A stretch of 64,000 bases of DNA, from NCBI GenBank assembly GCA_963665845.2, contig OY762492.1, forward strand, positions 736,001-800,000, in the 5' to 3' direction. Origin of the DNA: Candidatus Poribacteria bacterium (GTDB lineage: Bacteria; Poribacteria; WGA-4E; GCA-2687025). The notes below the pieces were generated by a model. It saw nothing but the letters and a program-made list of their open reading frames with translations. It searched no databases and had not been told where the DNA came from. A program made the translations under genes and the position numbers. Each line of letters begins with the position of its first letter. Position 1 is the first letter of the stretch. Positions 9,030 through 10,751 of the stretch are shown one piece after another.

Positions 9030-9176
9030 TAATATCCGTTTCTGGCTTGCGTTGATCCGAATCCTCCAATATTATACCGCATCTAAATGCCCAAAGTAAA
9101 ATCCGATCTTAATGCGAGGCAAACGGTTTTGGTGGCGACTCTGGATTCCCGCTTACGCGGGAGTATCTGTGTTCAA

Positions 9177-9182
9177 AGTCAA
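9177..9182 (-). promoter_or_regulatory. Outward -35 box (TTGACT) of the IS110 circle-junction promoter
   Basis: Joining the two ends gives TTGACT-17 nt-CATGAT (-10 at 10696-10691) directly upstream of the bridge RNA. Confidence 0.7.
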
Positions 9183-9281
9183 CCATTTCGCTCTTTCTGT
9201 AGTCCCGAAAGTCGCCGCGGCGGATATTTTTCAGCAGAGCCGAAGGAGACGCCGCAGCGAGATTTCGGAAAGTTGTTTTCA

Positions 9282-10469
9282 TCAGCCTCGCATCCTGTCG
9301 CTTGACGGCGGGTCAGAAAACGCAGCAGCCGCCGCTTCTCCTGGCGCCGTCAACGCTCCCTTGTCAGTCTCATCAAAAGACGCCGTCGCAGACGTTTCGG
9401 TCGGCGCCGCGCCCGACGCATCCGAAAACCCCGACGCATCCGCTGTCCCGTCCTGCTCATCGGAAGAAACCGACGCTTCCAAAGACGCCGAAACAGAACC
9501 CGAATACTCGGCAACCCAAGGCGTTCCGCGCTTCGCAACGGCACACGCCAGAACAACCAACTTCCGAGCCGCTCCCACAAGAGCAACCTTCGGAGGCTTT
9601 CCGCGACCGGTCAAACGATCGTAAAACGCCTTCAAATCCGGATTGTAACGCGCCGCCGACAGAGCCGCCATATACAAGGTTCCCCCCGAATATAACTGCG
9701 GCCGCCGCGTATCGAACGCTTTCCAAACGACCTGCCGCTCTCCCAAGCCACCGGAGCCAGACCAAACAGCGAAACAAGCTCCTTCGGACGCAAATCGGCA
9801 AACTCAGACAAGCAGATCGTCAACAAGATTGCGTTGATCTTGCCGACCCCCTTGATGCTCTTCATCAGATCAAACATCCGCTGCAAGCCCTCGCGCAGAC
9901 CGATCCGATCCAACATTTGCGCTTCCAGCATCTTGATCTGCGCGTCTAAATGCTGGATATTCTCCTCCATCATGGTCTTCAGCTGCTGGTCCCGTTCGCG
10001 CAGCCGTCGATTCTTTTCGGCGCGCCCTCTCTCACCAGCTGGGAGCGCCGCTTCATCCTGGCTTTGATCGACGCCAGAAGCGGGTCGGGCGGCGGGGTCG
10101 GTTCGGGTGACCGCTCCAGCCCGTATTCAGCGAGCAGCTTCGCGTCCAGCCTGTCGGTCTTGGCCATGTAGTTCCTTTGGAGCGGGCGTAATTGCGGAAC
10201 TGGGTCGGATGGCAGCGGTAGAATGGTATCTGCGCGGCGTGAAGTTGATCCATCAGTTCCAGCTCGTGTCCGCCGGTTGGCTCGAAGACGACCAGTTCGG
10301 GTTTGATCTCTTCGAGCAGCAGTTTGACGAACTCGGCGATGCCCGCCGCGCTGTTTTCGATGATGAACGGTTTCTCTCCGTTGATCGAGACGTCGATTTT
10401 GTCTTTGGCGACGTCGGCTCCGGCAACGATTTCGTAGTTGCGTTTCGCTCTGTTTTTCTTTACAGTCAT
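9282..10469 (-). pseudogene. IS110 DEDD recombinase with three apparent frameshifts (about 10170, 10027, 9685)
   Basis: RBS AGGAGG then MTVKK; AGADVAK, VFEPTG, AKTDRLDA (DEDD), [41 protein letters not shown] spread over four ORF-track fragments. Confidence 0.88.
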
Positions 10470-10499
10470 TTTATCCTCCTTTCGTGAGGAGTAGGGCAA

Positions 10500-10686
10500 G
10501 GGGGCTGGATCTCCACACTTACATACTGTGCAGAGCAAAGCATCTGTTCGGAGCATCCAGCCCATTTTGCCGTTTGCGCGAGCTTCCCTACTCCCGCTCG
10601 GCACCGCTGGCAGGTTTCCAGCGCGCCTATGACTCTTCGGAGCAGACTCGCGCGACCCCTTAAGTATGCGCGTACTCGAGGGGTAA
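10500..10686 (-). ncRNA. Predicted IS110 bridge RNA (5' hairpin, target-binding loop, donor-binding loop)
   Basis: Minus strand: 5' hairpin about 10683-10656; target loop closed by GCGCGAG/CTCGCGC with guides AGAGTCAT and GCGGGAG; donor loop closed by GGGCTGGAT/ATCCAGCCC with guides ACAGATGCT and ATGTAAG. Confidence 0.85.
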
Positions 10687-10751
10687 AGTAATCATGTAAA
10701 TGACGGTCTGGTTGATGACGCTTTTTCCCCACAAAGAGAGCGCTTATTCGT

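Follow-up and report, generated by a model that had tools for sequence, protein, structure and literature searches.

An IS110 pseudogene between two genes

The window, by which we mean the whole stretch of 64,000 nt that was analysed, contains on its minus strand an IS110 element copy that we refer to as A1. This copy is located between genes: a gene for a WD40 beta-propeller protein lies upstream (10752-11747), and a gene for a protein without Pfam match lies downstream (8253-9029), whose HxK-like motif we take to be of the phospholipase D type. At 11891-12445 there is also a short IS1-like element, which has inverted repeats of 41 nt and a truncated match to an IS1 transposase. The element, its gene and its two junctions comprise the following features.

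9162 to 10698, minus: IS110 element copy A1, 1537 bp from the first base past the left core through the right core; junctions common to nine other genomic copies
10701 to 10707, minus: left target, positions 1-7, the 5' part of the interrupted repeat (sequence, copy comparison)
10699 to 10700, minus: left core TT, target-derived (TT in 573/575 empty repeats of the type and at 10/10 left junctions)
10694 to 10698, minus: right donor, positions 10-14 (fully complementary to the right donor guide, with covariation between A and B copies)
10475 to 10481, minus: ribosome-binding site (sequence)
9282 to 10469, minus: IS110 recombinase pseudogene (PF01548 and PF02371 matches in separate frames; tblastn pieces; gapless contigs)
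9164 to 9170, minus: left donor, positions 1-7 (identical across all nine right ends in the genome)
9162 to 9163, minus: right core CT, donor-derived (junction census)
9143 to 9161, minus: right target and hairpin half of the interrupted NTS-type repeat (copy comparison; consensus in the accessible part of PMC11893778)

When the intact recombinase of a sister family was aligned to A1 with tblastn, the gene fell into four pieces separated by three frameshifts, near 10170, 10020 and 9680. The DEDD and serine motifs are still legible in these pieces, as is an acidic low-complexity C-terminal tail, and PF01548 scored just below its cut-off in a profile search of the window's reading frames. The possibility that the frameshifts are assembly errors was rejected, since short-read contigs from three runs of one study span all three without gaps; these contigs may derive from the source samples and exclude assembly error only. 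A1 is a pseudogene, a dead copy without an intact recombinase, and with its dead gene it would move only if a recombinase were given in trans. The first-pass annotation had described a new IS621 ortholog, and while the IS110/IS621-type identity stands, this copy is a pseudogene, its cores are unlike those of IS621, and the intact genes are found in the sister family. Membership of the IS1111 group was considered and dismissed: the guides lie in the left end and not in the right, and no long subterminal repeat was seen by eye at the ends of A1.

The left end encodes a predicted bridge RNA

Between the left junction (10707-10694, minus) and the gene lies a noncoding region, for which, together with the right junction (9170-9157, minus), an IS621-format bridge RNA had been proposed. 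Every motif of that proposal was found where it had been placed, that is, the junctions, the four guides, the 7-nt motif shared by and preceding both left guides, and the -35 and -10 boxes.

10691 to 10696, minus: predicted -10 box of the circle-junction promoter (4/6 of consensus; 5/6 in B copies)
10687 to 10690, minus: internal copy of donor positions 6-9, a putative cryptic site (12-bp footprints in a sister genome end there)
10655 to 10684, minus: predicted bridge RNA 5' hairpin (fold and covariation; in helix 1, 9/9 pairs change on both sides)
10576 to 10653, minus: target-binding stem-loop (fold, consensus fold, covariation)
10628 to 10636, minus: left target guide, 10636-10629 in the first-pass annotation (agrees with its own target at positions 1 and 4-8)
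10591 to 10597, minus: right target guide (complementary without mismatch to donor core CT followed by the right target)
10589 to 10590, minus: target-loop handshake (complements donor positions 7 and 6)
10502 to 10563, minus: donor-binding stem-loop (fold, consensus fold, covariation)
10539 to 10547, minus: left donor guide (one G.T wobble at position 7)
10518 to 10524, minus: right donor guide (sequence; A/B covariation)
10516 to 10517, minus: donor-loop handshake (complements target positions 7 and 6)
9177 to 9182, minus: predicted -35 box of the circle-junction promoter (similar box at the right end of many relatives)

Folding of the left end gave the expected 5' hairpin and two stem-loops, and did so beyond chance (z -4.69, with 0/200 shuffles as good). 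Whether the guides fall in loops depended on the fold used. A consensus fold built from 11 diverged left ends showed the two target guides as unpaired, like the right donor guide, and the left donor guide as free except for two pairs with the handshake, whereas in the single-sequence minimum-free-energy fold the donor guides were buried and part of the right target guide was paired. Of the 43 stem pairs, 30 change on both sides, a number reached by 0/500 shuffles and compared with 10-12 in slid controls; for this count the two guide-handshake pairs were removed, and the structure was derived from the same 11-sequence alignment. An Rfam search returned no match anywhere in the 64-kb window.

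The guides of A1 fit their sites unequally. The position given earlier for the left target guide was confirmed, but it reads only 6/9 target bases (those at 2, 3 and 9 are mismatched), and the genome contains no site that fits both this left guide and the right target. The right target guide, for which one wobble had been noted, would have this wobble only before strand exchange; after exchange it would match CT plus the right target exactly. As far as can be judged by sequence comparison, the 5' hairpin, the two loops, the four covarying guides and the handshakes with the opposite substrate are those of an IS621-like element.

By analogy with IS621, a circle would rebuild a promoter at its junction. 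Counting on the predicted circle confirmed that the two promoter boxes would be 17 nt apart, as proposed, with the hairpin beginning 7 nt past the -10 box; promoter and RNA themselves remain predictions. A promoter scan found none at the ends of A1, and such a scan is blind to a promoter formed on a circle. No circle-junction sequence was present in the genome assembly, nor was the circle joint among the joints listed for A1 or for B2 (an intact sister copy) in short-read contigs, which drop rare forms.

All copies occupy one base of one repeat

The target repeat supplies the top 12-mer of the host genome (G000), with 861 copies. The first-pass annotation had counted more than 30 potential landing sites in the window; there are indeed 34 copies of the 11-nt target core, but exact 14-nt sites number just 2, at 53078 and 8009, the former being the intact site previously reported.

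53078 to 53108, plus: intact (empty) target repeat with the same 14-nt site (sequence search)

Compared by eye, the repeat is an oriented hairpin that follows the NTS consensus in the accessible part of PMC11893778, with one loop base that varies. A requirement for the full hairpin was considered and rejected: it is present at 9/9 sites here, but about three quarters of all sites have one, and several relatives insert at sites without it. The repeat often sits inside a MITE-like composite of ~170-200 bp (L026:1420-1640, L030:1380-1620) that is missing at orthologous places of a second genome of the same genus (G001); an inverted-repeat search did not pick out the ends of this 170-200 bp composite.

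The host genome holds ten left ends and nine right ends, which correspond to A1, A2, B1-B7 and one truncated copy. All 10 left and 9 right junctions fall at the identical base of the repeat and none elsewhere, in a census that accounts for all 10 hairpins and all 9 right ends. In 9/9 complete copies the joined flanks restore the repeat, which indicates site-specific insertion without target duplication. In addition, all 10 copies lie in one of the two repeat arms, though the arms offer 808 and 802 sites (p about 0.001 if independent). Independence may not hold for all ten sites, since five copies have a longer left flank in common and the repeat rides in a mobile composite. Contig ends of G001 contributed a further 8 left and 9 right junctions with this form. 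A phylum-wide pattern search of 176 genomes gave matches in these two genomes only, and a metagenome scan for the right junction returned 5 loci, none with the right end of A1.

The recombinase of A1 and those of the intact B copies share about 34-63% amino-acid identity over aligned pieces. Five B copies have open recombinase frames, an intact B-type element lying for instance at C1 534425-535968, and the B2 protein passes NF033542 (189 bits, cut-off 140). The intact sister protein aligns to IS621 (E 1e-27) and ISCro4 (6e-30), and D18, E63, D105, D108 and S244 are conserved with respect to IS621. The acidic low-complexity tail, about 80 residues long, was seen in the A and B recombinases and their closest homologs (window 9282-9520; P0001-P0011) and is absent in most relatives; P0011 reads through the same right junction. 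A2 (C1:1533503-1531952, L001) is 90% identical to A1 and likewise broken at the first and third frameshift places. Its sequence is mosaic: the 5' end and target loop are of B type, the donor loop and gene of A type. The changed right donor guide of A2 restores one pair with the A2 donor and might be compensatory, but a low-depth contig in run X4 has the same guide on an A1 background. In run X6, a B-like element on L003 had a depth of 145 versus about 17 for flanking contigs, and loose ends there point to further right ends with the same donor half.

Guide and site vary together within the genome. The right donor and its guide differ jointly between A1 and the B copies; 7/8 copies with the B-type left guide sit where position 2 is C (background 314/829; p 0.006 if independent), and B7, with a T in its left guide at position 2, is inserted at a T site.

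Guides covary with targets across relatives

For a wider comparison we assembled 91 loci, namely the best 80 of 528 related recombinases (35-41% identity at best), the nine G000 copies and two further ones. Of these, 51 could be parsed with motifs that select for IS621-like ends, giving 41 non-redundant complete elements. In 31/41 of them the right target guide is exactly complementary to CT followed by the right target of the same element, and in 37/41 at least 6/7 bases agree, compared with a mean of 2.3 exact matches and a maximum of 8 in shuffled guide-target pairings. The first base of the target-loop handshake pairs with donor position 7 in 37/37 elements, and that of the donor-loop handshake with target position 7 in 40/41; this pairing with the opposite substrate is the rule in the accessible accounts of IS621 (PMC11208158; PMC13626964). 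A free search for left guides was noisy (5.3 matches versus 4.5 in shuffles), so the left-guide reading rests on alignment. The earlier proposal of an IS110 element with an IS621-format bridge RNA directed at the host's commonest palindrome is thus borne out, both by the common insertion base and by the covariation among relatives.

Several individual relatives are worth recording. L169 (G182) and L230 (G180) have been retargeted to other palindromes with the left arm kept; their right guides have changed to match and their cores are still TT and CT. The left end of L120 (G176 C6:476061), judged by eye, seems to be without the stretch from the right target guide to the left donor guide, so that the two loops are fused. 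Tandem or nested element copies in adjacent repeat units occur at G179 C1:535233-540283 and G181 C1:4402133-4403591.

The partial left-guide pattern of A1 recurs in two of these relatives, L153 and L181, and this bears on how A1 reached its site. It might have been placed by a target loop from a B-type RNA, in a mixed synaptic complex, and not by its own weak left guide: the B-type left guide fits the A1 site at positions 1-6, A2 combines a B-type target loop with an A-type donor loop, and in the accessible text on IS621 the two loops come from two RNA molecules (PMC11208158). We consider such borrowing unlikely, because L153 and L181 have many correct insertions with the same partial left guide, and because G001 has 8 A-type left ends at this site, though the target loop is not assembled there.

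Target and donor cores are unlike

The host junctions carry TT at 10/10 left ends and CT at 9/9 right ends, and only the second core base is common to both; the empty repeats have TT in 573/575 cases. In seven other genomes (G176-G182) TT was found in 74/76 pattern hits. Of the 66 left junctions listed in these genomes, 48 have a right end at the expected distance, and by hand count all 48 are TT on the left and CT on the right. The remaining 18/66 are decayed, nested, cut off or unrelated; two of these show a left CT, namely the decayed element L259 and the probably unrelated L260. The pattern used in the seven genomes is blind to junctions with the bottom-strand version of positions 6-9, and the host genome alone is a full census. 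An identical dinucleotide core is a feature of the IS621-like group that the junctions compared here do not display.

If rare CT variants of the repeat were the only sites entered, and a mutation later changed the left core, the cores would have matched as they do in IS621. There are four empty CT repeats in G176-G182, and the decayed L259 has CT on its left. However, 573/575 repeats are TT, and the four CT copies are level with transitions at neighbouring positions (4 and 7 cases). More than 60 junctions would each have had to acquire the identical mutation, the left guide has T at position 8 in all 8 aligned TT-core elements, and the census contradicts this reading. We therefore give this explanation almost no weight.

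Across the 11 aligned elements, left-guide position 8 equals target position 8 in every case (8 T, 3 C), and the right guide ends in G in every case; in the wider comparison this G is invariant in 37/37 elements. According to the accessible part of PMC11208158, which also supplied the cut sites, the G of each IS621 right guide opposite position 8 is bound by the protein. A likely reason why the mismatch is tolerated would then be that this protein-held G can wobble with the target T, so that T is accepted. Exchange would leave the tally at position 8 as it was, at one pair plus one wobble, with the left guide alone adapting. Since the count does not change, the mismatch would be tolerated without itself driving the reaction. 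As inferred from IS621, the top strands would be cut after position 9, and positions 6-9 would swap partners. In A1 the handshakes would favour insertion, with 2 Watson-Crick pairs before exchange and 4 after; in most B copies the donor-loop handshake favours the pre-exchange state, which makes the balance neutral overall. All junctions carry the top-strand version of positions 6-9, and for CazIS110-1 the available text describes integration dominated by the top strand (10.1101/2025.10.25.684509).

Cuts after position 8 and after position 9 cannot be separated by sequence alone, and the clade might cut one base earlier than IS621 or have a true one-base core, the shared T, in which case no mismatched base would be exchanged and the geometry would be unlike that of IS621. 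The junctions do have only this T in common, and two shortened empty sites in the host genome are one base shorter than the IS621 geometry predicts. On the other hand, guide lengths, register and handshake positions are as in IS621, CT-core elements of the same layout are nested in the same clade, and donor position 8 is paired with the right guide once exchange is complete, which is what joint transfer of positions 6-9 would predict. We regard an earlier cut or a one-base core as improbable.

In a tree, the TT-core rows fall in one 13-row clade (97/97) from Chloroflexota, Nitrospirota, Binatia and this host, with two CT-core elements nested within it. As they form a single clade, the trait probably had one origin with later retargeting, and not several independent origins. 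Altogether, we read A1 with a probability of about 85% as a frameshifted, likely non-autonomous IS110 element of the IS621 type, with a predicted two-loop bridge RNA that would guide it into one arm of an NTS-type repeat and there bring together a TT core in the target and a CT core in the donor. Directly visible in the sequence are the architecture, the use of one insertion point, the difference between the cores and the covariation of guides with targets.

Short footprints of the left end in empty repeats

In G001, three repeats contain exactly the first 12 nt of an A-type left end at the insertion point and nothing else (C16:87181, L047; C20:33915, L050; C32:175253, L054), and a fourth footprint is degenerate or decayed (C1:42772, L065). 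The flanks differ among these cases, and at the two orthologous places that could be aligned the host genome has the repeat without a footprint. The 12 nt end at window positions 10690-10687, the internal copy of donor positions 6-9. The host genome in turn has two empty repeats (2/833) with donor-type positions 6-9 that are one base short, at C1:630785 (plus strand, L026) and C1:2683231 (minus strand, L030). These are candidate scars; they lie in the mobile composite and may have one shared origin. The empty repeats with a CT core were likewise considered as excision scars and rejected, because transitions at neighbouring positions occur 4 and 7 times and the CT core 4 times.

If the right end were joined to a cryptic site located 12 nt inside the left end, the bases swapped would be identical and the circle set free would lack the -10 box. 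We lean slightly towards excision between these two points as the source of the footprints. Recombination at partial donor sites by half-matches has been reported for IS621 in the accessible part of 10.64898/2026.08.31.748434. IS110 excision is described as scarless, and whether these elements are cut out or copied out is disputed; we found no description of excision footprints in the literature searched.

The footprints and the two shortened sites could also be host microhomology deletions that happened once or a few times and were then copied with the repeat, the recombinase being uninvolved. Six microhomologies of at least 4 nt lie within 50 nt of the two ends, two other near-complete deletions (L077 in G001 and L263 in G179) seem by eye to use different ones, and other repeat variants also occur in pairs. 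The composite repeat is moreover missing at orthologous G001 places and hence mobile, which may limit the independence of footprints and sites. Against such deletions stands that all four footprints, three exact and one degenerate, rely on an identical 4-nt stretch that coincides exactly with the donor positions swapped by the enzyme, though 5-nt matches were available; the differing flanks and the half-match recombination reported for IS621 (10.64898/2026.08.31.748434, as far as accessible) also count against them. Host deletion has, in our estimate, a little less than an even chance.

Taking cores and footprints together, we tentatively propose a broader statement, to which we give clearly less than even odds. 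A clade spread over at least four bacterial lineages would routinely recombine a TT target with a CT donor, with the protein-fixed guide G acting as a C/T wobble reader and only the second core base shared. Its A-type members would also excise at their own cryptic, perfectly matching left-end site, with a 12-bp footprint fixed in the genome and the -10 box missing from the circle. Genuine cut-out and non-scarless loss would thus be on natural record in a family that is described as scarless and argued to copy out.

Relation to known systems

Bridge recombination by IS110 elements and REP targeting are already known, and what the first-pass annotation under-read were the unlike cores and the footprints in the sister genome. 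Our comparison suggests a REP-targeting IS110 clade that works like IS621 but without a shared two-base core. Bridge editors are designed with matching cores, and in IS621 matched non-CT cores are reportedly less efficient; TT/CT joining would relax this rule if it held true at the bench. A clade with a CT donor, TT targets, intact enzymes and the rule of changing the left guide alone would widen the target space while leaving the donor unchanged. A1 itself is dead and adds little here, the value being in its intact relatives, L151 and L153 among them. From the unlike base one can also tell which strand was joined, the footprints are relevant to the question of cut-out versus copy-out, and the target repeat, present in many bacteria, could serve as a multi-copy landing site.

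In the accessible parts of the reports on IS621 of E. coli and on ISCro4/IS622 (PMC11208160, PMC11208158, PMC13626964, 10.1101/2025.05.14.653916), the likeness to the elements described here extends to the DEDD and serine recombinase, the left-end bridge RNA, the 7+2+5 sites, the handshakes, the predicted junction promoter and the REP target. In its core and right half the B-family donor is identical to the IS621 donor given in the supplement (PMC11208160). The differences are that IS621 has CT in both target and donor, as opposed to TT and CT here, that the right target guide has a natural length of 7 nt here and 4 nt in IS621, and that the repeat is another one, the recombinase has an acidic tail of about 80 residues, and A1 is a pseudogene. 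Insofar as the published work is accessible, both cores were altered together (PMC11208160), and the design tool of the authors rejects unlike cores with a core-mismatch error (supplement 7 of PMC11208160). We found no description of natural unlike cores in the literature searched, nor in the accessible parts of 10.1101/2025.05.14.653916, PMC11187229, PMC13396178 and PMC13604230; the supplementary tables of PMC11208160 may list such elements with a one-base core.

ISPpu10 and ISPpu9 of Pseudomonas putida (10.64898/2026.03.19.712850) are likewise REP-targeting IS110 elements in an abundant intergenic palindrome, tolerate G.U wobble in their guides and act in trans, but are described with a CT core, unlike the TT target here. 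The top-strand dominance described for CazIS110-1 would explain the uniform top-strand positions 6-9 at our junctions; the available text on that element reports no target regeneration (10.1101/2025.10.25.684509), whereas the fixed footprints here suggest occasional element loss. The IS110 recombinase of the Nf1 phage is described as using a CT in a dRS3 subtype, at a position other than the one used here (PMC7058167). Finally, the target repeat fits the NTS consensus of the NTS/dRS3 repeats associated with the Ssn nuclease, as given in the accessible part of PMC11893778, and an ssnA-like gene is present in the host genome: a small GIY-YIG gene of 102 aa (C1, about 2298872-2299180; L283) lies between inverted copies of the target repeat.
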